DNA of 64,000 bases, taken from contig JAWMAR010000053.1 of the NCBI GenBank assembly GCA_036785375.1, positions 6,448,001-6,512,000 of the forward strand, given 5' to 3'. Below, one piece after another: positions 4,357 to 62,360 of this stretch. The position numbers and the translations under genes are program-made. Under the pieces are notes generated by a model. The model saw only the letters and a list, made by a program, of their open reading frames with translations, made no database searches and had not been told where the DNA came from. This stretch comes from Leucoraja ocellata. Its lineage: Eukaryota. Each line of letters opens with the position of its first letter. The first letter of the stretch is position 1.

Positions 4357-7300
4357 TACTGCTCGACTCGTTCAGACAGGTCAATGCCAAAGAGTTATTG
4401 ATGAACAAACCCGATTAAAATTCACCTCTTTTTTTAACTGCCCACACAAGTGCTGCGACTTTTGATCTAACAGATTTTGACCTAGAGAATGTCAATGCAA
4501 ACTAAGTGTTTGGGAAGTGAGGCCTATATTTATTCATAGATTCTGTGGTTCAATGAAAGCTATTATTGTCAACAGTCTGCCAAGAGCTTTCCTACGTATA
4601 AGTACACCGATTTTAAAAACAAAATTGAATTTTTCAAAAGTTCAGCTTTCTACTGACACAGAAAGCCATTTTCTTGCAGAAGCTGCTTCAGCATATGTCA
4701 AGACTGTTTTGTTTTTCAGCAGCAATTGTCCTTCATTATTTATCAACGCCTAAAGATTCACATTGTAAAACTAGTGCTGAAACGATGGATCCATGGCGCT
4801 GGGCCATTGCTTTGCGAATACTGCTTAAACATTATGTGGACCCATTTAAAGTGAGTCGCTGCTCAACGTTTATCTAGCGGTAAAAGTATGCTGTTACTTG
4901 AAGAGTGTTTGTGGCGAATATCGCGTGGTGAGATGTTGCCTTCTATAGCAGTTGGACGATATCCTGGCAGAGGTTCTGATTATCTTAGTGAAATAGCAAT
5001 GGTAGACCCAAGGTGAAAAGAAAGATTTACTATTCCTGTTGTAAAGAAGGTAGAATTTGAACATTTGTATTATTGTTTTCTGGTTGCCTGATAATAATGC
5101 AGATTAATATTATACTGGTCATTTGAAATATGGGGACAGAGTCTGTCTAATATATGTAATATTTTGTTTTTTTTATTATACGAATGCTGATACACTTTTT
5201 CTTATGTGTATGATTTTAAAATGATAGTGTCGAATTATTCCCGTGAATCTGTTACTGGGTTTAGAAAGGACAAGAACCGAAGGATCCAGTCTCTATTTTT
5301 AAAAAAACCCAGAAATATTATAAACACTAATTGTTTCATCAATAATGACTCCACCGTCAACCTGGTCAAGTTGTACAAAATGTCGGCGACATTTTATGCA
5401 GGCAAACCTAGCGAAGAGATAATTGAAGAAAAGAAGTACCATTTTCCAGTCAAACAAATGCTTCAGCTAATATTAGAGCAGACGCGAGGCTGAACGTTGG
5501 GCCTGCGTGGTTGTATCTGGGGAGCTTTTGCATTTGATTCCACCTACAACTTTCTATTAGCTCATTACGAGTAAACTTTATACATCTTCTATAATTATTA
5601 CCACCTCATTTGCCAAGTCATTTTTGCAGATGTTGAAACCGGAACGATAACTTTCCTCCGAATGACCTTTTAAAAATGCAGTCTTGCACTGGGAGGCGCT
5701 GTGCCCGCCTTGCCCGCTTCATAGTCACAAGGCAGCTAAATCTGCTTCTCTTCCCTAATGTCAGAGGTAATTAGAGTTCAACATAGTCATGTTTTAATCG
5801 TACTCTGCACCTATAACAAGTCTACCCCTTTCACAGAATGAGAATGTAATTACACGACCAGTTAAATATCGCTATAAAAATAGATCACAAAGAATTCAAA
5901 AGAGTGTCCACAACAATTTTCACTGGAATCATGTCAGTATCCAGTTTACCAGTCACAATGCAACTACATCTTCACCTCACACAAATTTCACATTCAAAAC
6001 AGCCGACCGTTTCTAGCCATTCGCCATGTTAATAAGAAATAATTCATTCAATAATACTTACTTCCGAGCTTCCTCCATTCCGCCAGCTCTGCAATAAAAA
6101 ACACAATGTATGCTGAGTGAATCGCGTTTAATACCATTCAATGCAAAATAAGAGCACAGGTGGATTTTCTAATCCAGATTAATATTAAACTAACGTACAT
6201 GTTGTTATCTACGGAGCACTGTAACATTTTACTTTCCAAGATTAAAAAAAATAATTGTGATCTACAATGTGATTGAAATTGCCAGCCCGCGTTGTTATAA
6301 TGCAGATTTGAAAACAGAAATTCGATCATTTATGCTTTGAGTAGCTAATTGATCTGACCATTATAGTTTCTCCTTTAGGGAAGGCATAAAGTCGTATCCA
6401 TTTCACGTACAACGTTATTTCAACAATTCATTCAGATTATCGTGGGCATTAATATAGCCTGGTGTTATTTTCTACTAATCTCTCTTCAATTAACGAGGCG
6501 ATTCTTTTTTCCCCCGAACAAATGTGAACAAAACATCGATTTATACACGGAACATCATCCTTTCGCCATAATTCGCCCTTAAAAAGTATTTTCGACGTGT
6601 TTCTCGATGTTTTCTCGATGTATTCTAATCATTATTTGGTCAGTGCAAGTGATGTTGAACATTTTCAGCAGAGAAAGCTTTCGCTTGTTTTGATGATACA
6701 GCTCATTAACCTTGAAGAATTCCAAAATCATGATTTCTGTATTTTGTTAAAATATAGCTTCAGAGTTTGCTATTAAACTAAAGGTGGTTAAAACAGTATC
6801 AACGTGCCAGACGTTTTTTTTGTGCAAAATATATTGTGATTATTTACAGCGCGTTGCTCTGTGTAAGCAATTTCCATTTCAGCACTCGAGATGTGCATCT
6901 TTAGTCTGATTGATAATTTTACATTCGTTGGCGCAGGGAATATGAAGGATTTGAATCTGGGTTCATAGAGTTTGTGATTTCGCCCTCTACCCTCTTTCTC
7001 TTTATGGTTTTCTACCTTTACAATTAGTGTCAGTGTAGCGTAAAATTGAGGCAATGGGGTTTGTTTATTGCCGATTGCATTTTAAAGATTGGTGAAGGGA
7101 AATCCGAGTAACATCTCGCCAGTTGTAAGGAAACACTTACAGCACCTTTAAAGATCAGAAAGCTTTCTTTCAGAAGGTAATTGTAGGAAATGAGAACTCA
7201 CTATTTTATACATTAAGCACACCTTGTTCGTCATTGTTCTCTATTTCTTATCCAAATTGCAACGAATGTGATCGATTACAAAACCCTCGGGACAGTGAAT

Positions 7301-9045
7301 AAAACGTTAGCATCTATAACTGAGGGGATAATTTTACAGTTTGATACAATCTCAGCAAATTAATATGGGCACAATAAAGGATTTGAACATTTTATTGCAT
7401 AACGTTGAGAATTGCTTTTAAAATTATTTCCTATCTCTAAATATATTTTTATTTCAGCCTCTCGGTATAAAAGAGGTGTTTGGTTTTCGATTAACAGCAT
7501 AACCCTTCCAAGATCTATTTTTAGGAAGCACTGAGTAATCTTTAAATTATAATGCCATATCAAATACACGTCATTCAATTTAATAAGTAATGCTGCTCAG
7601 ACATATTCACAAGATAAGATCATGTTGATTTTGTGTTTCTATTTTCCTTTAACGGAATGCTTAAACGAACATGACAAACTTAATTCATCGATTTATAATT
7701 GCAATTAAAGTGGAATAACGTGCGTGATAGTTATTTGTCTGGTCCATTGCGATATTAATTTCATACTTATTCATTGTGTGCAGCCGTCACTACAGAGGGC
7801 TGTGGAAAATGAACTCAGGCTGCACTAGATTTTGGGCTAGTCAAGAAACAGTACATGCGCCCAAGAGCCTGGAATGACATCAGGTGTCACGCGTCTACCA
7901 GCCCTGTAAACGACTAGAAATAACTTACTTGCTGCTTTCCCAGCGCAAAGGTACAAGGCACTTGCACATCTCCAATGCATAGCGGCGGATCAGGACAGCT
8001 AGCTTCTTGGTGTCACTTTCCACAGGCCTTCTCGAAAACACTAACCATCTGCACTTGTCTGCTCTTAACCTAATATATGATGTGAATTATATTTCGGCGT
8101 GTCAACTCCCCTAACCATAAAACAAAGTTTAATGGCGTCACGTGCCCCTGTGCAACCAGTCAGGACCTGGCTCTCCGGCGTCCATATAAATAACCCTTAA
8201 AGTTTAAAACTTTTATTCACTAAAGACAGCCTTGTTCATTGAAATGTTCTCTCAGTAATATAAAGCTAAATCTCCGAGTACCCAGATGGACGTTTACCTT
8301 GGATAATAAGTTTTCTTTACTTTAAAACGCAATTTGGGCACCTATTTCCTATGCAACCACGACGATCTATTTACACTTGGTAAGTTTAAATACACTGTGT
8401 ATCCGTGACCGATAGCTTCAGTGATATAAAACTGGGTCGATTAGGAATTCAAGCAAGAATTCCTTTATAACATTTAGAGTTTCCTGTGACATTGTTTTCC
8501 TATTTCAATTGCTTCAATCATCTATTATTTCATCTTGTTTTAGAGTTAAATGCAGAGTTTAAATCCCCATTGGATTTTACCCTCCAAAATGATCCTGCAA
8601 TGGAAACTAACGGAGAGCCCTCTGGTTTCCAATGCTCGTGCATTTCAGTTTCACCACTGGATTCACACATTGTAATAGTACAATATCAATAGACACCAAT
8701 TATATAAAACAAACTGATATGTTCAATCATTAGACGACATATTATCATATGTAAATGAACATGTCTGGAAACTGGATGCTGTACTTCCTGAACGAAGACA
8801 TATTCTCTTTTAACATCAAATATCGAATAGGTGTTAGCTCGGCCAAGAGTTCTTCCCAAGAACAATACCTGGCAGAACATATTGAAAGCCACTACATTTC
8901 TAGGACCTTTTACGAAAATCGAAGAACTCTGGTGTCGAGTGAATCGAAACAAAATGCGAATACAAAATCGCCTCGCTTCTCCCGCAAGTGCACAATTGCC
9001 AGTACTTCTGAACATGCACTGCAGCTAAAAACACTGAGTGAAGTA

Positions 9046-9069
9046 TTTATTGGTAAAACTGTGTTTATT
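9046..9069 (-). terminator. Likely HoxD5 polyadenylation signals (two AATAAA)
   Basis: tttatt at 9046-9051 and 9064-9069, about 560 nt after the stop codon. Confidence 0.5.
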
Positions 9070-9622
9070 TCAACGTTGTAGACAAATCACCACTCATTTC
9101 ATTTATATAGCACAAAGTCAGACATTTAAACATTATGTATGTACAGAATATACATAACAAGATATAGCTGGGAAGACAGAACGAATCTCAGAATTATTCA
9201 AACAAAGGAAAATCACCGTTGATGTAAAAAAAAGATGAAAGTAAAAATATTTATCTAACTTTACAGAACATTATCAAATGATAGTATAAAAGAAGCATTC
9301 ATCCGACCGAAGATTCAGCTACCAGCCACAGACAACAAGTTCATTCTGCTCTCCGATGTGAACTGTTTGCATGGCTACATTACACCGGCTGATCTCTTTA
9401 TTGTTCTCTCTTCTGATCTAAATTTAGGCATAGATATTATAAATATATATATTGAAAGAAAAAAAAAAGATGTTAACATCTGTTGATGATAAGTGATAAA
9501 ATCTACTGATGACAGGGCGTTGAACCCACCAACGTATCTCACACAACATTTTATGTGGCCAAACAAGCTTCCCCATTGCAACGTAAAGGACAATAATATT
9601 ATAGCCAGTTAGGTGTAACCGG

Positions 9623-9865
<243 letters not shown>

Positions 9866-10237
9866 TTAATAAAAAGTTAAAGATGAATTACTACACGCAT
9901 TGGTGTAAATATATTACATTATATCGTTTTAGACATCATTGTTTAATGCGCTTTACTACCCCAACAGAACAAAATAGACAAGTTCTCCGATAGATAAGTT
10001 GAAGTATTTTTAAACATGATTCAGTTTTCAAGATGCATAAAATGCAGTTCCTGACACGATTGCTGTAACCCGCTCAAAGCAACAGCTTATATTCTGATTT
10101 CATTCCAACTGTTATGCTTTTACAAATAGCATGCTTTATTAATTTTGATTAAGTTACTCTGTTTCCAAATCTAAAAAAATCTTCGACCAAAATTACAAAT
10201 GTATATCAAAAGTATATATTGGCGGCATTGAGCGTAC

Positions 10238-10745
10238 CTTGATTAAGGTGAAGCTTTTTCATCCATGGATATATTTGCATCTGCTGTGCTGAATCCTTGT
10301 CTAGTTGCCCACTTTCTGGTTTGGGGCTGTTCGTTCCCACAAGATGTTCATCGGTAACCGGTGATGTATCCTGACCACCGCGGTATGAATGACTTGCCCC
10401 TGTGATTGCAGCCCCAGTTTTAATAGTACTATCTGACGGGCTTATCAAAGGTCCTGAGCTGAAGGTATGATCAGGAGACTTAGTTCTCACACTAGAAGAA
10501 CTGTGAAAGGTGTTACTGGCTGTCTGCATGAAGTCAGTAGACCTTTCACTGTCTCCACGAAGATTTGAGTTAGAACGAGTCATGCTGAGGTCTATCCCAG
10601 TGTAATCATAGCCATACCTGGCCGAAAGCATCGTCGACTCCCTAAAATGCTCCTCCACAGACGAGGCATTCCCATAACTCTGCAACTGATAATCGTGGCC
10701 ATTTTGGTAGCGACCTGGGTAAGAGTTTAGAAAGTAGGAACTCAT
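10238..10745 (-). CDS. HOXD5: HoxD5 exon 1
   Basis: [21 protein letters not shown] is a group-5 N-terminus; also [12 protein letters not shown] and [10 protein letters not shown]. Donor G|GTACGC at 10237. Confidence 0.93.
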
Positions 10746-10819
10746 CTGCCTTTTAGGGGATTGATTTGTGGTTCTTAGACGTTTATTCGCCACCAGAACG
10801 CGCGATATATAATGAAATA

Positions 10820-10925
10820 TGGAAATAAAAGGCACATGTCATTTCTCTGCCTCCTACGTATGCAACCAAATATGGGACACAAGTTTAGATCACGTGCTTT
10901 TGTTGACCAGTCGTAAATTCTTGTG
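10820..10925 (-). promoter_or_regulatory. HoxD5 proximal promoter/leader (Hox5-type conserved block)
   Basis: TTTACGACTGGTCAACAAAAGCACGTGATC at 10888-10917, typical of Hox5 promoters. Perfect CArG box ccaaatatgg at 10866-10875. Confidence 0.75.
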
Positions 10926-12607
10926 CCTGACCCTGGGGGTAATTCATGCAGTGAGAATGCTTACTGTGATTCAGCGAGCCTTGTCCTACAGCGCCTCCTT
11001 CTGACATCCACGGAGAAAACCAGGCTCAGGTCGCCAAAGCAAAATTGAAAGAGACTTTGATGCGTAAAGGGGTTTGTATGTTTTTTTTGTTCCGGAATGG
11101 TTTCATTTTTTTGCATCAAAATTGTTCACGGATTAGGGTAACCCTTAACTATGAACTCTTCTTTCTGTTATCTGAAATCACCAATTATTCAACGGGGACA
11201 TGTATAGGAAAGTGCACGTTCAACGTTTGTATACATAGAAAACAAGAGTATACAATCATTTAAAATCGCAGTTATCGTACGCCGTGATATACTGCACCTT
11301 TATCGCAGCCTCCAAAAATCATGCGATGATTTTAATACCTAAAATTATTCACAAAGAATTCAACACACATCACGTCTTTTCACTTGAGTTGAATTATTTT
11401 TTTTTTACTTTGTATTAACTATTTATTCGACACCAACATTTGAGGTACACTTTGAGTAAATAATTATATTCACGACGAAGAACCTGTTAAAAGATCCTAA
11501 ATATTTCCAATGCATAATATGACTTCAGGATTCATATTGTACTCTGTATTACAACGGGGTGGACCTTTTAGATGTTGTTACTGGTGTTAAAATACGCCAA
11601 GCAAAATATTTTCTTAAGCAAGAACCAAACACGCCATTCAAATCTACAGACAATGCACATTTCATCAAGGCTTTCACAGACTGCAGTATGTTGTTTTCGT
11701 AGAATACTGGATTAGGACTGTTTAGCCACTAATCAAATATCTTTACAGAAAATTTATTTCACATACTTTGCACTTAGTTTATTTTTCTGGTTTACAAATA
11801 GGCGATTCATCTTGCACTGTCTTTTGAGCACAGGATCCCAGATAAGTATTTGCTTTCTATTTTTATCGGGCAATGGTTAAGGAAATAAAAAAGGATTATG
11901 AATCTTTGTTATTTTATATGTTAAATTATTTTCTGATTGATTAAGTTGCGGCTTGTTACGAGAGAACCACTAACCGAAAACGTAAGCAGAAGCGCGCAAT
12001 GCACTTTTTGTTCCATTGTGCGGTTCAACTGCACCGTAGCTTTGACGATATTTTCAACTGCAGTTGTTCAAAAATATATCAACTAGATCTGTTGCAAGAT
12101 CTGATGAATATATATACTGAGGTAATTACAAAACCGATTAGGTATCGAAAACGAACGATACGATTTGAGGGGCCGCACTATCGTTTGTCCTGCTCGGGAG
12201 GGATGTTTCACGGTGTGGAACTTTATTTGAGACACATCAAGTCGAATCCAGTTGGCTACTGATGCAGTAAAACCGCGACGGCAATAAATGTAATATCTGA
12301 ATGCAGTGTTTGCTTTTTCCTCTTTGATTAATAGGCGAATTATAAATGCTTGATTGCGATCCGGAATCGCACATCTAATGAAGGCAACGAAACGATGTCA
12401 AAACACTGACTGCATTAATCTGAGTCTGAAGAATTTGGCAAAGATCCGCCCATTGTCGCGGTGATACTTAACGCACGTGGGCTGTAGTTATCTGTTGCTG
12501 GCTGTTTTTTTAGGGATTTAAAAAGGGTGTTTCCAAACCTCTTGGGTAAGTGAATTATGAAGCATTGAAATAGGATCGGCAGATTATTTGGCACTGCACC
12601 CCACCCC

Positions 12608-12621
12608 CTCTCTCTCTCTCG

Positions 12622-12659
<38 letters not shown>
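12608..12659. repeat. Compound (CT)n(CA)n microsatellite
   Basis: Direct inspection. Confidence 0.95.
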
Positions 12660-12660
<1 letters not shown>

Positions 12661-15600
12661 AGATACACGTACACACGCACGATCTTTAGTTTGAAAGTGT
12701 ATTAACCGTGGTAAAAAAATATTCACTGTTTTACAGTCGTGGAGTGTTGGCAGATCGAGCTCTTTGTACTCTCTTGCCAGTGGGTACTTAAGAGTCTGGA
12801 GTTGAAATATTTCATGACTAGATGTAAGGAGTACACACAATCGGGTACTGGGCCACCGCCCATTGTTCTCTGAAACTGACCAACTCTCCGTATTTGGGGA
12901 ATGTTACAGCATTATTGTTTTTTCGGAAGTCCGGTCGAGGGCCTGGATTGGAAGTGTTCTAAACCTAAATATGACGTTAAATAGATCCAGCAATTTAGAA
13001 CTTGAGATGGATTAAGTGTAAGCAGAAGAGCATGTAACATTCTAACGTATATTTTTCATTAATTGTCATAACATGGGGTCTGGTTTCATTTAGAGTTGGG
13101 GAATTTTGATTGTGTTTTGTCTTACAATTCTGAGCTAAGATCCTAATTGCTATAATCCAATTGACCGTCTAGCCCTCGTAAATCTAATTTTGCAGCAGCC
13201 GTCTTTGACAGTGGATGGAAGAAATTATATTTGCCCCATATTAATCAGTTGCTCTTCAACAATAATGCAATGTATGGTTTCCAGTTCTGAGCTCAACTGA
13301 AGTCAAAATAAACCCAGATTACCACTCCTTACGCCCCCGAAACTTCTGACGCAGAAAGCTTGTAATTAACTTTCCACTGGACACGACAATAAACCCCGTC
13401 CCTACTGTGGAATAAATGAAACAGTCCGCGCACCATATGCTAATGTTTTTGATGTTTCCTTTCTGCAGAGTTCTGGGCCTTGTAATAATTTCGAGAGAAG
13501 ATCACGATCTGGAAATTATTTTATCGGTTCTGTGAAGAAGAGCAATATTCGGGGATCGCAGTAAATTGATTCCCGTTATACACCGCATTAAATATGTGGG
13601 ATTTGTCGTAGTTGTTTATGTTGGCATATATACCTTAAAACTGAAAATGAGCGCTACAAATTAAAAAGCACTCAACATTTGTTGAGAATCGAATTATGTT
13701 TGTCACAGACTTTAATTGAAAATGGTTCCATTAAAAAAAGAAATGTTGTTATTGTTGAATGGAAATCGTATTGGGGGTTTACATATGGGCGTTGTTGATC
13801 CATTATGGAGCAAAAATCCTTCAGAAATATTCTGAGCAATATTCTTTAGATATAACCTTCCATATAAAACTCTGGGTATTCAATAAAAAATATCCAAACC
13901 TCAACAGAACGATGTCCACATTCACCCTTAGCCGTTTTAGGAAGTTTTGCTTGGATAATCTGAAAATAAATTAAATAGTCCCACTTTGAAGTCGTGGAGT
14001 AAATCGTGATTGGGAAAGAGGCACTTACTAATTATTTTCATAATGACAATTTATCTTTGTTTTGCTCCGAGATTTAGTTGTGCCGGATTATGACCCATCC
14101 GGCGGAAAGCGTGGTGCAAACATGAAAATCATCAAGAAGTCTTTCACTGAAATCTAAAAACGAATGGCGTATACTTGATGCAAACACGATTTAGTTTAAC
14201 GAGAAAAATTCAACAAATATTTAACATCTTCACTTTTATAAAATTGAAATAAAAGATCTGAATGAATAACCGCTCCATAAGAATACCAGTCTCAACCACA
14301 GATTGTAGCCAACACAGACGTACTGAAACCTACATGGAAACTGACTGAAGAACAATAATGAAAGCAAATCAATGCTTGAAAACTGTTGAAAATGCATACT
14401 ACTTTCTCCAAGGACCAAAAGATTGTGCACTCCGCTGTCGCCAATCAGATATAAAATTTAAATGCTTCTTCTAAGTATTTTGTAATGAAAGTACACTCAC
14501 AATATCATTAAAGGTTTATTTGGTTCCAATACGTTGTGTGTGCTTTTTTTTGTTTGTCGTGAGTGCTTCATTTCCACAACGTACCTGTCACTCTGTCCAA
14601 ATGGACGCAGGTAGAAATAAGATTTTTAATTATTTATAATTTGCAAATATACCCCAATTGCCACTGGTGAACTAACATCGATGTTATTATATGCTGCATG
14701 GGTCAGGATGATATATTATAGTTATATTTCATTTCTAATATGGGGTCTAAAAGATAAATTAGTTTATAGTCGAATTATATTGATTTTCAACGGCATGGGA
14801 ACAGAAACTTCTTCCTTCAGCTCCGATGCAAAGTGGTGAAATGTTCGAATATTTTACCAGCAGAATTGCAGCTAAGATAAAGAAACAGTTATGGGAATAT
14901 TCACATTACTTTTCCGCTACCGATATCTCAAGTTTCAAGCTTGCACATATTTCCCCATCAGGCTGTTGCAATAAAAAAATAATATTGAGAAATTAGAATA
15001 GAAAAAGATTGCGGTGCTTTTATTTCGTGTTTTGTATTGTGACGTTACCAACATGAATTTGGAACAGTTTACGTCAAATCAGAAACATTGCTCAGAATAT
15101 CCTTATTCTGAGGTCTCAGAACAAGGTTTCAGAATATAGACATTGGAGTTCTTATACACAATCCAAATGAATGAACAAATGCAACTCGGCATAACATCTT
15201 CAGAAAGCAATTGATCAGATGCACAAACCGAAAGTGTTTGCACAATGACAAAATACTAGACAGCTCTATGATCGTCTAACCAACATCAAGGTATTGAAAA
15301 GACCTCTTCATGTTGACCGCGGGAAGATTGTGCTAAGAGTATTGCTCATTTGTGCAGACTGCAGTCACGTGATAAAATATCATTAAAATGTTACGCTGAG
15401 CTTTTCTCCCAAAATCCCAAAGCACTCGATGTTTTCAAAGCCAGAGTTTGCCTCACGGACTTATTAGCATCGTTAACACAAATCCATCACTCACTGCTGC
15501 AACTTTTCATTTGACGAGAGAAAGAGTTCAACCTTCATACCCTCCGCCACAACACGGTAAAAAAGAGCATAGAAAGCCGCAGACCCAAGCCGCCAATCAC

Positions 15601-18600
15601 TGAGGCGGTTCACTAGCGACCCGCCCGAAAACCAACAAGCACTAGAGAGGCACCGGCAATAAAAGTAGCAAATATATATATTTGTATATAAATGTTGTAT
15701 ATATATATAGTCTTAATTGAACTAGGCAAACCGACTAATCTTCACATGAGATGCTGGACACAAATGTCAGTTGTGTTGCAGTAACACTATTATCGCAAAT
15801 ATTGGACCGAATAGCAACTCTGTTTCATTGCGGGAAATAAATATTTAATGAATCTGCCGCACAGCCACCGTTTATACTCAACCGGTCACCTGGACCTGGT
15901 TAGAATGCGCCGTTTGAAAACCAGTCGTGCTGCTTGTTAATGTATCGAGCATTTCCCGACCTGGCAGAACAGCTGCCTAGAACTGAACCAGCGAAGGCAA
16001 CGCCGTTGCCACGCATTACAATACTGCTGTCTGCAACAGCCGAGCAGGCGAGAGCAAAAACACTTACCGGTTTCATGGCGTTTCCCCCGATCGGGAACCA
16101 GGTGGATTTTGTATTCCATTTGTACAGTTTCGATTATCAAAATAACTTAAAAATAGGTAAAGCGAGTTGGAGGGTAAGTTAGAGGTTGTTAGCAGACGTC
16201 AGAGGTCTGAGAGAAAGATCAGATTGCTAAAATCCCAGCATGAGTCGAATCACTTCCTCATAGTTATACAGAAAAGGGTTGAACACCGCGAATAGAGCGG
16301 AAAGTCTCCCCCTTTTTCCCCAAGCAGCTGGCGCCAAATACCAACGACAAAAGCAGGCAAGGGGAGATACTGACAGAAAAGACGGTTTGAGACGAGTTAG
16401 CAGCGGAATGCAGTGAAATATTCACAAGGGAAATCATGAAAAGGCCATGAACGCAGTTACTTGCTTCACATGACCAAAACTAGCCAATGGCAGCGCCGGC
16501 TCCCTCGTAAAAGGTCCATTACAAAGTTGTAAATTTTCTTCAAACAAAAAGGAATTCGCAGCAATTCCTTGCGGATTTCGCAAGTACAGCTCGCAAGCGC
16601 CATGTTTCCTTTAACGAGTTCTTTGCAAGAGCTATTTGTTATATAACATGCATTGTAACCCACACTCTAACCAACTATACAAGGGGAAGTGCACTAACAG
16701 CGTAAACATAAAGGGAAATAACTCTCTCGACAGTGGGCACTTCACACCACTGCAATCAGACCCCTGCAATTTGGTAATATACGGTATTTTACTTCGTGTT
16801 CTCAATACATCTAGTATAAAGATGTGTTTTCCCCAAAGCAACTGCTGCAAATTATGAAGCACGTATGATGCACATTTCCCAATGTTGGCAATTATGAGTC
16901 AGACAGCTTCCGGATTAGCTTTGACATGATTTCCTGAAACCTTTTTAATTTGGTCGGGTTAAGAATAGGAAACAAGGGAAACTGAAGCACGTTGGTCACT
17001 CAGTTAGAAACTGCACCATGGCGGCTGCATTCATTCAAACAAAAACAGTAATGCAGAAAGCGTGACAACTCGCAATAAATGTTCTGTGGTGTATTCTACA
17101 CAGGTGAGAAAGAGGATGTTGGTTCTCAGTCTGTGGAGCTATCTGCTAACATATCGAGCCTCCATTTCTAACTACTATGGATTATTTCATTTATGTACCC
17201 GCCGATTCCAATGAAGAAGAGAAGATAAAATGAAATACACCCCCATCACAGTCACACAATCCACAAGAAATTAAGTTGAATGGACACAACAAATCTTTAT
17301 TTTTTGTATATATATTTAACGCTCATGAAATTGCAGAAATTCTTGAATCAGTTTGATGTGTAATTGTTCTTCTCGTTGCCAGCGAGGGAGGAAATTCATC
17401 AGGAGAGAAGAAGATGCCTGGCAGTTATTTGACATCGCCCTTTCCCCTTGCCTCATGCTTCCCGTGGATTGAGATATGTAGAAGGTAGATCATCTGATAG
17501 GATCTGGACTGAAGCCGTGAAGAAATTTTACTGAGAAAATGCAAAACCGTCCCTTGAGATTAAATGGCTAAGCACCGATTTCTCAAACATAACTCATAAT
17601 GTCCATACGCGCCGTGTTTCCTGTAGCTGGCGACGGGAAATTAAAATGAGGCGCAATGTTATAAAATATTCAAACTTTGAAATTCTATTAACTTTGATTT
17701 CGGAAATTATTTTATTTTCTGGATTTGGATGGGGAGGCTGGAGTATTGGCAGGGCGTAGAGGAGAGTTTTCAGTAAAAGACTGAGTTTATTAAAGAAACG
17801 AACGGATTGCAGAACCTAAATAATCCAGTTGCACTGATTCATGAAAAGCGGTTCTAATGCGTGATTCTAAAGGTTGGAGTTTTTTGGATATATTTGTGTT
17901 ATAAAAAATATGAAATTATGAAATATAACTCCTTTCATAAGCCTCTATAGGTCAATTCTTCTAAAAAAAACTACTTGATATTTGGACCATTCAACCCGCC
18001 AGTGAAACCCTACTAATAAGCTCAGATCTCGTACCATTGTCCACACGAACGCCACGGAGACCAATAATTGATCCACCAATACATAAAAAACAACAAACGC
18101 GACATAGCCCTCTGTTTGATTATTTGGTTTATAAAATAATTATAAAGATGGTTCATTGTTTTAGATAGGGGTTTTTTCTGTAAGAAGGATCAGATCACAA
18201 TTGCGCTTGGGGGAAAGCACCACTGTCCACCCTATTGGCGCGGTGTGATTAGATTGTGAGAATCAGTTTTGAAAAATACTGGCTAAAAAATCGTCCAAAG
18301 AATACTCCTCCGGATTGAGCAGACAATTGCGAAAATGAAATGTTCATATTACTTCACGTAAAATTGATGTAGCTTCTGAAAGAGTTTATCTGCTTGGTTG
18401 ACTATGACCTCTCTGAGAATGTATAAATTCGATCAAATATGTTTGCTTTAACATAAAACGTGAAGCCAGGTTTTTTTTTAATGGCAGATATTGTGTTGTA
18501 GTCTGCAATTTTGTCCCTTCTCGTTTTGAAATAGTTAATTGGTGTTTAATTTGGCAACTGTATCTGGCAGAAGCTGGGCATTGCAGAAGCATGGTCTCAT

Positions 18601-19833
18601 TGTGCAACCTATGACTAAATTCGGTTCCATCTCTGGAAACTGTTTCTGAAATTATCTTAACAACATTGCCTTATCAGAGTGGAGTCTGGACACCGCTACT
18701 AATAATTTTATACTGCCAGCAATTGTGTTTTTAGTTGTTTGCATAACATTGGTGGATGTATGTTTTTCCTCCCCCTCCCCAGAATCGTTTCCTGTTTGCT
18801 CTCATCGTTTTGTTTTGTTCAACCTTACCATGACATTGTAATTTGTGCATAGAAGTGGACATCAAAAATCGTCTATTCCCTTGTTGGGCGTTTATATGGG
18901 GCTTGCGCGCCGGTCCTGCTGAAGTTTAAATGTGGCTTAATCGCCGGTTGTGTAAAATTTAACGGCAAAATGGGAGGCTATTCGACAACTGTAGGCACTG
19001 CTTTAGCCTCCAACCTGTAAAGCGGAAAAGAATAAATTGGAACCTAGAAGTCTTCAGTTTGCCGAGTGATTTGTAGTATTAGAATTTTATTGTCGGTTTT
19101 ACGAGATTTGCTGATATACGTGTACAGTAGACCGCAGCTTTACACAAAACACTAACTTTTACAGCGTCGTTTTAGCCACACATGAGTCAGGCATGTGATC
19201 TGACTGGCCAATGACCACCCGAAGACTATTTAACTTAGGGCATAGATAAACTAATATTCTAATCATCAACTCTGTCATTAACTTTTATAACTGCATGTAA
19301 AAATACACCATCTCCAGTCTTTTTCATCCAACGATCAGATCTGCCGTGTTGTATGGCAGATGGGCACCCCGTGACTGCAGAGGTAAACACAAATAAAGTA
19401 TATTCGATTTAATCTTGCAGAAACGACTGAAAACAGCCACAAAACGCTGGCTAAATAATAATTGCAGCGACCTCATTCTCAATCAACCCATAATGATTCT
19501 CTATCAGAACACACGTTACTTTTATTTTTCTTTGGGACACTGGTCGTAAAATGAAACAAGTACGCAGTTAAATTTAATCAACATTTATTAATTTAATCAC
19601 ATTCGACCATCATAAAAAGTGACTATTGCTGCGGAATACCTTGTATTTTTTATTTTTTTTGCTTATGTTTATTCACTGCATTTCGGAGAATAGGTAATTT
19701 TTGAGAATTTCCAGCCGCAATACACCACCAATTAGTTTACACGCACAGTAATTAAGACACATCGCAAGTGCACAGTTTTTTTTCTATCATTAATTAAGTG
19801 TGTTCGCAATACATTCCAAATAATCCATTCTAT

Positions 19834-20252: not shown

Positions 20253-20548
20253 TTACTTGGTCTCTTTCTCTGATGTGTCCTGCTCGGGCTCTTCCTGTTC
20301 TTTCTTGACCTCTTCCCCCTCCTCGTCGTTCCGAGACGTTGGGAATTTGTCCTTGTTGTTTTCCTTTTTCCATTTCATTCTCCTGTTTTGAAACCAGATC
20401 TTCACCTGTCTCTCGGTCAGTCCCAGAGCATGAGAAACCTCGATCCTTCGCTTTCGAGTCAGATACGGATTGAACAGGAATTCTTTTTCCAGCTCCAGAG
20501 TTTGGAATCGGCTGTAAGTTTGTCTCCCTCGGCGTCTACCGGGCGCTG
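20253..20548 (-). CDS. HOXD8: HoxD8 exon 2 (homeodomain)
   Basis: [70 protein letters not shown]. Acceptor TAG|CAG; stop TAA at 20253-20255. Confidence 0.96.
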
Positions 20549-20776
20549 CTAAACGGCACGAGAAACACAAAAAGACAAGAAAAAATTGAGTCAAATTTGC
20601 ACGGTCAAATAACGACAAGACTAGCCAAAAAAAGGCAGCGATTTTCGCTTTGCACGCTAATGCTACATAAAGAAAATGTTCCTATTAAAGCTGACTAGTA
20701 CAGATAGCATTAAACACCTTGGCGGCAGAACTGAGCAGTAAAACGTGAGATGGAAGCTAATTTTAATATATCCAAC

Positions 20777-21203
20777 CTTGAGGTCTCATCCAGGGAAACA
20801 TTTGAGTAGGAGACGAGCCCTGATTTAAGTGCTCTGGTTCTTCGCCAATATTACTGCTGGACGATTTACAGTCAGGATATTGTACCAGATCGGCCTCTTG
20901 CTGTGTCGTAAAAATTTGCTGTCTTTGTAAGTTATCGTATCCGTAAAATTTAGAGGGGTCACCATGACACGTAATTCCACAAGGATTCTGTTGAAAGCCA
21001 GTATTAGGAAGCGCTGATGTCCCATGATGGTAAAATTCTTGAACTTGAGCAGGGTGCTGGAAGCTCGCTCCGCTGCTGGGACCATACACCACAGCGTGTC
21101 TGCTGCTCACGTCCTGTGGAAAGCGGCAGTCGTAGTAAGTGGGACTTAGGGCTTCTCCTGGCTTGTACTTGGAGTAGAATGGATTTACAAAATATGAACT
21201 CAT
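20777..21203 (-). CDS. HOXD8: HoxD8 exon 1
   Basis: [14 protein letters not shown] start, [10 protein letters not shown] and QMFPWMRPQ. Donor G|GTTGGA at 20776. Confidence 0.95.
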
Positions 21204-24200
21204 CTGTGCAGATTCAAGAGTGGCCAATGAATATAAACAAAATAAATGCTTAAGCAGTTCTGGAGTGATATTATTGACTTGCTCGATCTACACACTGTTC
21301 ATGATGGCAATGCAGGTCCAGTGTGCACTGATGCCCCGTGCAACATACTCGCTAATACTGAAGGTGCACCACTGCCTCAGTGCTGTGACTGCTTCACTTT
21401 GAAACCGCAGATCAGTTGTAAGCCGGCTGAAGAGATCTTTAGACTGCCGTTTACAGTTACTGCCTTCGCGGACAACACGTCTGTGCTGAGAAATGATATT
21501 TTTTTAGGAAAGTAGCGGGCACACTGATCGGGGGGGAGAAAAAAAAGATAACATGCGGATTAATATATTCAGCACCCTCTCATTACAATTAGGCGGGCCG
21601 CATCACAGAAAACATGAAATACGTGCGCCACTCAGCTGAAGAGAAATGAAACTGGCCCGGTTACAGCACAGCAATTAGATTTCAGAACACAACAAGGTGA
21701 GACCGGTCTCAAGGTCAAGACACAGTCAAAAAGGGGGAATGGGGGATGGGGGAGGCTCGAGGGCTAAAAGGTTAAAGTTAGAATTAACATTAGGGATTAT
21801 TTGGTTTTGGATCTTTCTGTAAAGCTGGTAAAATCTGCTTGCGCCTGTCACTGTCTGTCTGTCTCTGTAGCTTCACACACACACATGTACACACACATAT
21901 TATATATCTGTATCAATAGCCATCAATATATATAAGTATATAAACGTGTGTCTTATATTTATATAGGTACTTTGGCGCACGGATACCTGCCGTTTACCTA
22001 CAAACTGAAGTGAGTTGGCAATATTATTCCTATTATTAGGTCTAAATAGGAAGCAGATGCACAAAAATCCAACGCCTGTTTAAAATAAACTGTTTTACCT
22101 AATAGCATTAATATATTTTGTGAAACAATAGTCTACTAAGAACGGGGGAAAGAGTTATCCTTGACTCAGATTTAAAAAAAAATATGCTCGCTTGACTGAA
22201 ACTTGGAGGTTAATTACTAGCTAATGAAAATCATGCTTCTGAATACAATTTCCATCATTTCACCCATGGCAGACGTCATTGGCGAGAAAAGCAGCTCGCG
22301 TCTGCAGGGCAGCACGAAGTTTGCAGACTGTGGTTGAAATTGCATCAAGAGCTGCAAAACCCGGGAGAAATACCAAGGCTAGGTTAGAGGCGTCCATTCC
22401 CAGGTTCACGAGTTGCCCAGAATTAAACCCCAATCTCAACTTCTCCCCCCCTCCCCCCCCCCCCCCCCCTGTCCTCTCCCCCAATTCAAGCGACTGCGCT
22501 TAAAGTTTAATGGAAAAGAGTGCTTGATCTGGTGAAACTTGAATTCACCAGTGAACTTTGTTCCTCACGCTCCGATGCTTGTCTCAATCCACAAACTGCT
22601 GCGGGGAAATAAAAACAGCAATGTTTTCAGTAACTGCTAACCAGAAGAATTCAAGTTCTTCCTGGATGCATGCACTGTATGTTCGTTCAAAGTGGGCACA
22701 ACCAAGAATTTAAAGTCCAATATGTAATGGACCACAGCAACTATATTCTGATTTGTTTTCATTTATTTGCATAAAATAAAAACACAGCTGACAATTCACA
22801 GTTTAAAACACGATGTATCCCCTAATCCTAATGTAACACTCCCACGTTTAAAGATTGAAATGGGTATAAACGGGATCATTTGCCCAATTTTAAATGTTTT
22901 CTAGACGGCGGACATCGGTCAGGGCCACAGTCCAAGTATCCAAGAAAACACTTCCCAAAATATGGAATATTTACATTAATTTGCAATACAAAATATTCAG
23001 CATATTAATTTTGTTCCGCACATATATATGTGCGTGCAACTGATTTTCGCCAAGATATTTGGATGACCGCAAGTTTGGTTCGTTTAAGCACATTTATTTG
23101 GAAAGGTAAATTCAATTTAAGATTATTTTTACAACGCTCTTTTTTTTTTACAAACCATTCATTTACAAACTTTAACATTTAAAAAACTAGGCCTGACAGA
23201 CTGGAAAGCCTACGTGTACAATAAGTTTCATTTCAACTGTGTTACCTGTTTTTCTTTTTGCCTTCTGAAAACAAATGCAACCCCATTTTTATCAAAAGAC
23301 GATAAGTCAAAGATCAGAAAAATAGAAATGAATACATATCTGATTTACTGAATAATTCTCTCAAAGATCAGCTGAAAACAAATGGAAAATAGATATAATT
23401 CTTTGCAATTATGCGATGTTGCTGGATACATTTTTAAGATAAAGCACCCAGTATATATTTAAAATGTAATTAGCCGCAAACGTCTCATTGAAAATCTTAT
23501 AAAAAGGACTTACTTTTAATTGAAAAGTCACTTCCAAACGGAGATTGTAATTTAAGATTCACCTGAAGATTTTATTCCCTGTTTTTGCGGCCTCTGCATT
23601 AATTTAATGGAAATTGGTTTATTCCGGGAATCGTTCTAGCTGCAAAACCGTGCCACGAACAACCAGTGAGTGTGATGCGTTTTATTCTATTTTACTTTCA
23701 AAATCTCTATCTGCTTCCGAATGTTTGAAACTGTTTCAGAAAAATCAGGAAAAGACTGCATTTTCTGAAATACGTATTTTATTGAGAGGATTGTAAAATT
23801 TCCCCTCAAGCAAATAGAAAGCAAATATCGTGCTTGGCTCAATTTGTTTTATTCTTTAACGGTCGAAATAAACATTTAAAACTGCAAAAAGAACTACACC
23901 TATTGTTATTTATAATTGTTAGCAAGGTCGCTCGAACGATGTGCTTTTTATTGTACCAATGCAGCACTGGTTTAAACGTTACAATTTTCTTTATTGCTAA
24001 AGTCTTTTATTAACATTGCGAAAGGACAAAAAGCCTGATTTATCCTTTTTCTCGAATCCCACTCCGGTTTATCTATCGAGCCGACCTTGTTTATAGTATA
24101 AGCCTTGACCCATTGCTGAGAGATCACATTTTAGAATTTCGGCAAATGAACATTATTCGAACAAAGGCAAGAGCAGGCACAAATATGGTGTTTTTTGTTA

Positions 24201-29100: not shown

Positions 29101-29142
29101 CAGCGATTGGTTGCGCGATTCACGTGACTGTATTTACCAATA
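29101..29142 (-). promoter_or_regulatory. HoxD9 proximal promoter (CCAAT/E-box)
   Basis: gattgg 29105-29110, cacgtgac 29121-29128 and ccaat 29137-29141. Confidence 0.65.
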
Positions 29143-30372: not shown

Positions 30373-30534
30373 NNNNNNNNNNNNNNNNNNNNNNNNNNNN
30401 NNNNNNNNNNNNNNNNNNNNNNNNNNNNNNNNNNNNNNNNNNNNNNNNNNNNNNNNNNNNNNNNNNNNNNNNNNNNNNNNNNNNNNNNNNNNNNNNNNNN
30501 NNNNNNNNNNNNNNNNNNNNNNNNNNNNNNNNNN
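30373..30534. other. Assembly gap (N run)
   Basis: Run of n. Confidence 1.
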
Positions 30535-35629: not shown

Positions 35630-35735
35630 CAGCCACATGACTACTGAGCCAATGGTATTTGAAAGTGGCCTTGAGGCACTACCTCCCCGAACATCACATG
35701 ATCGCCAGGCAGTTGAATTTGATCTTAACTGTGGA
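35630..35735 (-). promoter_or_regulatory. HoxD10 proximal promoter
   Basis: cacatgac 35634-35641 and ccaatgg 35649-35655, TCAAGGCCA at 35666-35674, a second cacatga at about 35695, and tandem nuclear-receptor-like half sites tgaatt-tgatct-taact. Confidence 0.65.
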
Positions 35736-62173: not shown

Positions 62174-62360
62174 NNNNNNNNNNNNNNNNNNNNNNNNNNN
62201 NNNNNNNNNNNNNNNNNNNNNNNNNNNNNNNNNNNNNNNNNNNNNNNNNNNNNNNNNNNNNNNNNNNNNNNNNNNNNNNNNNNNNNNNNNNNNNNNNNNN
62301 NNNNNNNNNNNNNNNNNNNNNNNNNNNNNNNNNNNNNNNNNNNNNNNNNNNNNNNNNNNN
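62174..62360. other. Assembly gap (N run)
   Basis: Run of n, preceded by a G-rich tract. Confidence 1.

Follow-up and report, generated by a model that had tools for sequence, protein, structure and literature searches.

A probable distal promoter between HoxD8 and HoxD5 in a skate HoxD cluster, with spliced products that skip HoxD5

Between HoxD8 and HoxD5 of the skate Leucoraja ocellata, near 16.5 kb of the window (the whole stretch of 64,000 nucleotides analysed here), lies an inverted CCAAT box followed by an E-box with no Hox gene behind it. We consider it likely that this composite is a shared distal promoter, and that the spliced RNA it produces ends in HoxD3 or HoxD2. The motif, two splice junctions inside the window, the skipping of HoxD5 and, in ray models, a second first exon (7980-7929) joined to the same mini-exon are all established at the level of sequence. 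Distal Hox promoter units are of a known kind, and the skate HoxD element is real and used.

Results

The HoxD cluster and the position of the element

Eight homeoboxes are present in the window, all on the minus strand: HoxD13, D12, D11, D10, D9, D8, D5 and D4. HoxD4 exon 1 shares all 137 residues with the proteins of Leucoraja erinacea and Amblyraja radiata, and 120 to 131 of the 137 with 14 further entries from sharks and rays; a chimaera entry, compared out of register, is ignored. The HoxD cluster in the window is of the rajid-skate type. The coding regions that matter here are those of HoxD8 (20253-21203), HoxD5 (9623-10745, with exon 1 at 10745-10238 and exon 2 from 9864) and HoxD4 (77-1248), all on the minus strand. 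A mir-10 precursor (RF00104, 72.5 bits) is found at 2627-2698, also on the minus strand. The 16.5-kb element sits 3.7 kb past the stop codon of its upstream neighbour, HoxD8, and 5.7 kb ahead of the HoxD5 ATG. Its CpG ratio is not distinctive, since the observed/expected value is 0.86 for the whole window at 38% GC; the HoxD cluster is hardly CpG-depleted.

Some other features of the window were recorded. Runs of N occupy 30373-30534 and 62174-62360. A CAG stands directly 5′ of the HoxD8 and HoxD5 start codons (21204-21206 and 10746-10748, minus strand), a possible acceptor for upstream non-coding exons. At the HoxD9 promoter (29106-29126, plus strand) the CCAAT plus E-box composite occurs in both orientations around a single CACGTG, possibly forming a bidirectional promoter.

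The composite motif

The original prediction gave the letters and coordinates of the CCAAT plus E-box pair, of the adjoining site and of the splice donor, and all were exact. On the minus strand, the composite (16467-16490) consists of CCATTGG at 16490-16484 and the E-box GTCATGTG at 16474-16467; by its likeness to Hox promoters it is likely the core of a distal promoter. The octamer TTTTACGA (16505-16512, minus strand), which we take to be a Cdx/posterior-Hox-type binding site, stands 15 nt ahead of the CCAAT box. It is weak alone. Its counterpart in the HoxD5 promoter, ATTTACGA at 10918-10911, matches it at 7 of 8 letters. Elsewhere, GGACCTTTTACGA at 8908-8915 (plus strand) repeats the 13 letters of 16517-16505 (minus strand).

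The strict pattern ATTGG-N5-14-GTCAYRTG was found four times on the Hox strand (HoxD10 at 35653, HoxD9 at 29141, 16488, and HoxD4 at 1369) and never on the other; 0.04 occurrences per 64-kb strand are expected from 150 Markov simulations, a favourable figure given that the pattern was defined from these same promoters. The chance of one such composite in the 8.5-kb gap between HoxD8 and HoxD5 is about 0.005. A looser form, defined after inspection of the sequence, gave seven sites on the Hox strand and one on the other (simulated mean 0.67, maximum 4, 150 simulations). Four of the seven are at coding starts (HoxD10, D9, D5 and D4), and three are gene-less (19212, 16488 and 8160). Some constituents are weak when taken alone: TTTACGA occurs 10 times on the minus strand for 5.3 expected, and the donor has a rate of about 0.04 per kb. 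When the element was aligned with promoters of the window, the HoxD4 and HoxD5 alignments beat shuffled sequences (0 and 1 of 200 shuffles as good, respectively), and those with the HoxD10, D9 and D8 promoters and with the 19.2-kb site described below were no better than shuffles.

The putative first exon and its donor

The putative first exon (16068-16460, minus strand) has a 3′ end that is shown and a presumed 5′ end, with possible internal acceptors at 16369 and 16206. It ends at 16068, followed by a GTAAGT donor (16062-16067). The E-box to donor distance had been described as like that of a Hox exon 1: the value of about 400 nt is exact (399 nt), and it is shorter than the 512 nt of HoxD4. 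The donor is in phase 1, the phase of the HoxD8, HoxD5 and HoxD4 introns. The exon holds six ATGs, four of them with short ORFs. The fifth, ATG 16119, opens a frame of 17 codons plus 1 nt that runs to the donor (16068-16119). The proposal of a non-coding first exon is thus not plainly right, as this frame is open to the donor and, in two models, reads on into a HoxD2-type exon 2.

Splice junctions inside the window

The evidence for splicing comes from protein records, in which the one long open frame of the exon was sought. A search with the 40-residue frame of the exon returned one candidate, P0147, which represents a cluster of five members (P0147-P0151), all from Logan contigs of 1958-2578 nt. 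In all five, residues 1-17 are exactly those encoded at 16119-16069. The next nine window-encoded residues were scored as carried by four of the five, with two differences in the remaining one; P0147 residues 18-26 correspond to 6089-6063 at 9 of 9 positions, and the mini-exon residues of P0148 and P0149 differ from the window by two and one residues, respectively. When the window slices were joined at canonical GT and AG, residues 1-26 of P0147 were reproduced 26 for 26. The donor predicted at 16068 is therefore used in spliced products. The second exon is a mini-exon of 27 nt in phase 1-1 (6062-6088, minus strand), preceded by a pyrimidine tract and AG and followed by a GTAAGT donor. The acceptors that had been guessed, 9864 and 387, were not seen; the one found is 6088. 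We infer from the exon joins that the Logan contigs derive from RNA. Among sequencing runs, none of RNA was listed as containing the window; 14 presumed-RNA runs share 6-15% of window words, a small share that we did not count as evidence. A representative search with P0147 gave three hits, one of which, the repeat protein P0153, was dropped as a chance match.

Intron 1 of the long transcript (6089-16067, minus strand, 9979 nt) holds the entire HoxD5 gene, which is skipped in all seven records carrying exon 16068. These seven are the proteins, among 153 collected, that start with the exon-16068 peptide; none runs into HoxD5 or HoxD4, a count that does not cover isoforms hidden in other protein clusters. 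A search for HoxD5 exon 1 among longer proteins found none. From residue 28 on, nothing in the window matches P0147 at more than 23 bits, so that the next exon would lie beyond HoxD4 and mir-10. The second intron would then span both, which makes long mir-10b-hosting transcripts towards HoxD3 likely, as had been proposed. HoxD4 is skipped in P0147-, P0125- and P0130-type products.

Downstream targets

The upstream exon leads to two different Hox targets, likely HoxD3 for P0147-P0151 and likely HoxD2 for P0125 and P0130, the two routes coming from different species (skate and manta ray, respectively). For the first, P0147 residues near 28-47 were compared, in a shifted frame, with the exon that follows HoxD4 in RefSeq models. 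They fit two shark models at 19 and 16 of 20 positions and two ray models at 15 of 20, for 9-12 compatible positions in shuffle controls (20 shuffles each). P0152 overlaps P0147 residues 53-155 and then runs past the stop of P0147 at a W. Read in the shifted frame, with one W taken as TGA, it contains no forced stop and allows a Met at P0147 residue 87. Close to its end it is compatible with an FPWMK hexapeptide, as none of 300 shuffles was. Together these fits suggest that the RNA enters, out of frame, a Hox exon 1 downstream of HoxD4. By position and by group-3 signatures, we take this gene to be HoxD3, the likely target of the skate long RNA. P0147, the only skate-identical product, has no Pfam match.

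The second route is seen in XP_072117910.1 and XP_072117907.1, which are predicted RefSeq models of manta ray and the two members, out of 13, of a ray and shark "Hox-D4a" cluster that start with the exon-16068 peptide (14 of 17 residues, scored against manta-ray P0130). The peptide is joined in frame to a homeobox, without the mini-exon in XP_072117910.1 and with it in XP_072117907.1. ATG 16119 is accordingly in frame on the HoxD2 route and out of frame on the HoxD3 route. The manta-ray homeobox is identical to the eight homeoboxes of the window at 26-40 of 60 positions and matches none of them. We presume from its signature that it belongs to group 2, and its position also makes HoxD2 the likely target. 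Comparison with the Atlas (scores under 0.9) and the PDB confirmed the homeodomain in P0130, not its group. HoxD2 exists in catshark, according to the part of PMC3707753 consulted. Between skate and rays, more than half of the residues of the mini-exon peptide differ.

Several transcripts encode one protein in 7 of the 15 chondrichthyan HoxD4 entries listed, which fits alternative untranslated exons. The HoxD4 homeobox itself contains an internal donor, AG/GTATCT, near 290 of the window (minus strand), by which ray and shark RefSeq models (P0121, P0124, P0126, P0128 and others) leave HoxD4; some of them are HoxD4-HoxD2 fusions with half a homeodomain and a whole one.

A second, putative gene-less promoter at 8.1 kb

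Another gene-less composite (ACTGG...CACGTG, 8139-8160, minus strand) lies just 3′ of HoxD5. It is followed by an alternative first-exon end (7929-7980, minus strand), again an ATG with 17 codons plus 1 nt and a GTAAGT donor, which joins the same mini-exon in the ray RefSeq models P0127 and P0132. This site likely corresponds to P2 of mouse Hoxd4 and to splv2 of zebrafish hoxb3a. As at 16119, the ATG is exactly 52 nt before a phase-1 donor, perhaps by chance.

A gene-less site at 19.2 kb

The third gene-less composite (19214-19192, minus strand) belongs to a separate candidate HoxD7 relic at 19040-19214, with a TCGTAAAA site, ACAAATCA at 19074 and, near 19056, a decayed start-like context without ATG, 136 nt past the E-box. 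ACAAATCA has four copies on the minus strand, including one that precedes the HoxD5 ATG by 24 nt. With the HoxD5 start region as query, picked after the motif had been seen and hence post hoc, the 19.2-kb site came top of 280 windows (score 62; mean 34.8, sd 6.4; next separate site 57). The HoxD8, D4, D9 and D10 start queries do not single it out. Its layout is, we assume, that of group-7 leaders. On this post hoc test and that presumed layout, it is a better candidate for a HoxD7 relic than the 16.5-kb element. Scans of sequence collections for the 19.2-kb pattern gave 0 and 0 hits. A strong acceptor-like tract lies near 19016, past the site.

Copies outside the window

Scans with the 16.5-kb motif gave three hits in metagenomes, none in viral sequences and two chance hits in prokaryote genomes, and a plasmid scan gave no match. 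Four of these five hits are bacterial chance matches, two of the metagenomic contigs (L001 and L003) being bacterial-looking. The fifth, L002 (3417-2885, minus strand), is a fish-like contig whose Hox cluster could not be assigned. The motif triple recurs in it together with an GTCATAAA site further upstream; about 460 nt past the motif comes a short exon that contains an ATG and ends at a phase-1 GT. No Hox coding sequence was found in it. Its flanks align no better than shuffles (91 and 340 of 1000), the body of its exon is at chance when compared with the window exon (157 of 200 shuffles), and its donor region is matched by 5 of 200. L002 is only a lead. No placeable HoxA, HoxB or HoxC DNA came out of the collection scans. 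Copies of the 16.5-kb element presumably exist in the A, B and C clusters. Annotated human transcription starts appear to lie between Hox7 and Hox6 in all four clusters.

Discussion

A distal promoter feeding HoxD3 or HoxD2

The most likely explanation of these data is a distal promoter shared by downstream genes. NF-Y and USF-type factors would bind the composite, and Cdx or posterior Hox proteins would bind TTTTACGA. Transcription would start just after the E-box. The RNA would then be spliced from exon 16068 over HoxD5 to the mini-exon 6088-6062, and from there past mir-10b and HoxD4 to HoxD3 or HoxD2; mir-10b, placed within the second intron, would be released from the primary RNA. A start beside HoxD8 may give these RNAs a more posterior expression domain, as was originally proposed, which is plausible by analogy with zebrafish hoxb3a splv2 and mouse Hoxd4 P2. 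On the HoxD3 route, ATG 16119 would open a 155-codon upstream ORF that overlaps the presumed HoxD3 start by 68 codons, out of frame; that RNA would then be expected to be translated poorly or to decay. On the HoxD2 route, a homeodomain protein lacking exon 1 and its hexapeptide would be made. The element was probably retained after the loss of HoxD6 as it serves downstream genes too.

A bolder form of this model, which we hold to be rather doubtful, makes the ATG a splice-dependent switch that silences HoxD3 and frees mir-10b on one route and yields a hexapeptide-less HoxD2 on the other, and adds a HoxD7 relic, made up of promoter, leader and decayed start, kept 1 kb past HoxD8. If it were true, a posterior promoter would tune anterior Hox output, and traces of HoxD7 would have survived a loss that predates the split of sharks and bony fish.

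Other readings of the element

In the original prediction, the motif and donor are what is left of a lost HoxD6 or HoxD7: its proximal promoter and the donor of its exon 1, later co-opted. The element does sit where these two genes are missing, its composite is that of coding Hox promoters, its donor is in phase 1 like Hox introns, and the 430 coding bp of skate HoxA6 exon 1 (PMC2746220, in the part consulted) are of the right order of size. Against this, the ATG is 97, 101 and 116 nt past the E-box at HoxD10, D4 and D9, and nothing start-like was found about 100 nt past the E-box at 16.5 kb. No decayed exon 1, hexapeptide or homeobox was detected at the element by tblastn, or by PWM ahead of donor 16068. 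Over 19900-10900, tblastn used 11 queries taken from the window, all from outside groups 6 and 7, and found no Hox coding remnant (best E 0.4); such missing coding traces weigh little after so old a loss. No gene-start query ranks the 16.5-kb site clearly; it is the top window of the HoxD10 query, at only about 3 sd. Moreover, 399 nt are too short for a 100-nt leader plus an exon 1 of 410-510 nt, the 8.1-kb composite with its spliced first exon shows that a promoter of this sort can exist without a lost gene, and the 19.2-kb site is the better fit to a relic. An origin of the 16.5-kb element from a lost HoxD6 or HoxD7 is thus unsupported, and we regard it as unlikely. A milder form agrees with the preferred reading: the element may at one time have supplied HoxD6 as its distal promoter.

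The main gap in the promoter reading is that exon 16068 could be internal: its acceptor-like sites at 16369 and 16206 are plausible, and no sequence ahead of ATG 16119 appears in the protein records. It would then belong to RNAs starting at HoxD8 or at the 19.2-kb site, and the motif would be an enhancer or the driver of an antisense RNA such as human HOXD-AS2, which an excerpt of PMC10670380 links to a HOXD3/HOXD4/miR-10b promoter. The strand and layout of the composite are nevertheless those found at four coding starts, eight poly(A)-type hexamers lie between the HoxD8 stop and 19.4 kb, and contigs of 2.0-2.6 kb fit, short of proof, a start near the motif; we find an internal exon very unlikely. 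A mainly coding exon, placing a 17-residue N-terminus on Hox exon 2s and producing Hox proteins that lack the hexapeptide and bind DNA independently of Pbx, seems to us highly improbable. Its phase is that of the three Hox introns checked, it is in frame in the two manta-ray models, 14 of its 17 residues are kept between skate and manta ray, and the mini-exon keeps the frame. Yet phase 1 would arise by chance for one ATG in three, ATG 16119 is the fifth of the exon, the one product identical to the skate sequence does not share the frame of its Hox gene and lacks a Pfam match, and the mini-exon peptide is poorly kept between skate and rays. The distal promoter remains our preferred explanation.

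Relation to known Hox units

The HoxC4/C5/C6 promoter is likewise situated a few kb 3′ of Hox8. Polycistronic Hox units are defined in PMC1831499, which in the portion consulted lists C6-5-4 and D4-3 with mir-10b; such a unit has an upstream exon spliced to at least two Hox genes, and introns holding other Hox or mir genes. Both are found here, with HoxD5 in the 9979-nt intron and the next exon past mir-10 and HoxD4. The HoxC4/C5/C6 unit (NM_014620; Table 1 of PMC1831499) resembles the skate one in that a single upstream exon leads to different Hox genes, with Hox genes in its introns. Compared with it, the skate unit is in the D cluster, skips group 5, likely reaches groups 3 and 2, and has an ATG whose frame continues into exon 2 of a group-2 gene.

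The mammalian HoxD4-D3/miR-10b unit with mouse Hoxd4 P2 has a long RNA to HoxD3, intronic miR-10b and HoxD4, small non-coding exons and a posterior expression limit, all of which resemble what is predicted for the skate (PMC1831499; PMC3185001, which describes long Hoxd3 RNA from P2). P2, at 5.2 kb upstream of Hoxd4, has its match in the skate 8.1-kb site (6.9 kb upstream). The zebrafish hoxb3a splv2 transcript is expressed according to the position of its start (PMC2148072, in part). It also has a far-upstream start and miR-10 in its primary RNA and ends in a group-3 gene, but it starts 3′ of hoxb5a, whereas the skate unit would start 5′ of HoxD5. Mammals are without HoxD5 and HoxD2. The 16.5-kb site, 15 kb upstream, more likely matches the human start near HOXD-AS2.

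The position 3′ of Hox8/7 and 5′ of Hox6/5 is also that of an element which we believe to be shared by all four clusters between groups 7/8 and 6, under the name H8/7-6 FCS. That name did not come up in our literature search, which left most subscription journals outside its coverage and turned up no paper on the skate 16.5-kb element; the word HoxD7 was absent among the matches listed, a weak check. Three non-coding elements conserved in all four clusters are reported, without placement, in the part of PMC3595034 consulted, and the consulted parts of PMC2080641, PMC4470032 and PMC7139118 contain nothing on the 16.5-kb element.

Two points may surprise specialists: that the proposed role of ATG 16119 depends on the frame, and that the 19.2-kb site, should it be confirmed, would preserve in sequence a remnant of HoxD7. 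With its junctions known exactly, the skate element places a long, gene-skipping Hox unit in a cartilaginous fish. This suggests an origin of such units in the jawed-vertebrate ancestor and a part for them in holding Hox clusters together after gene loss.
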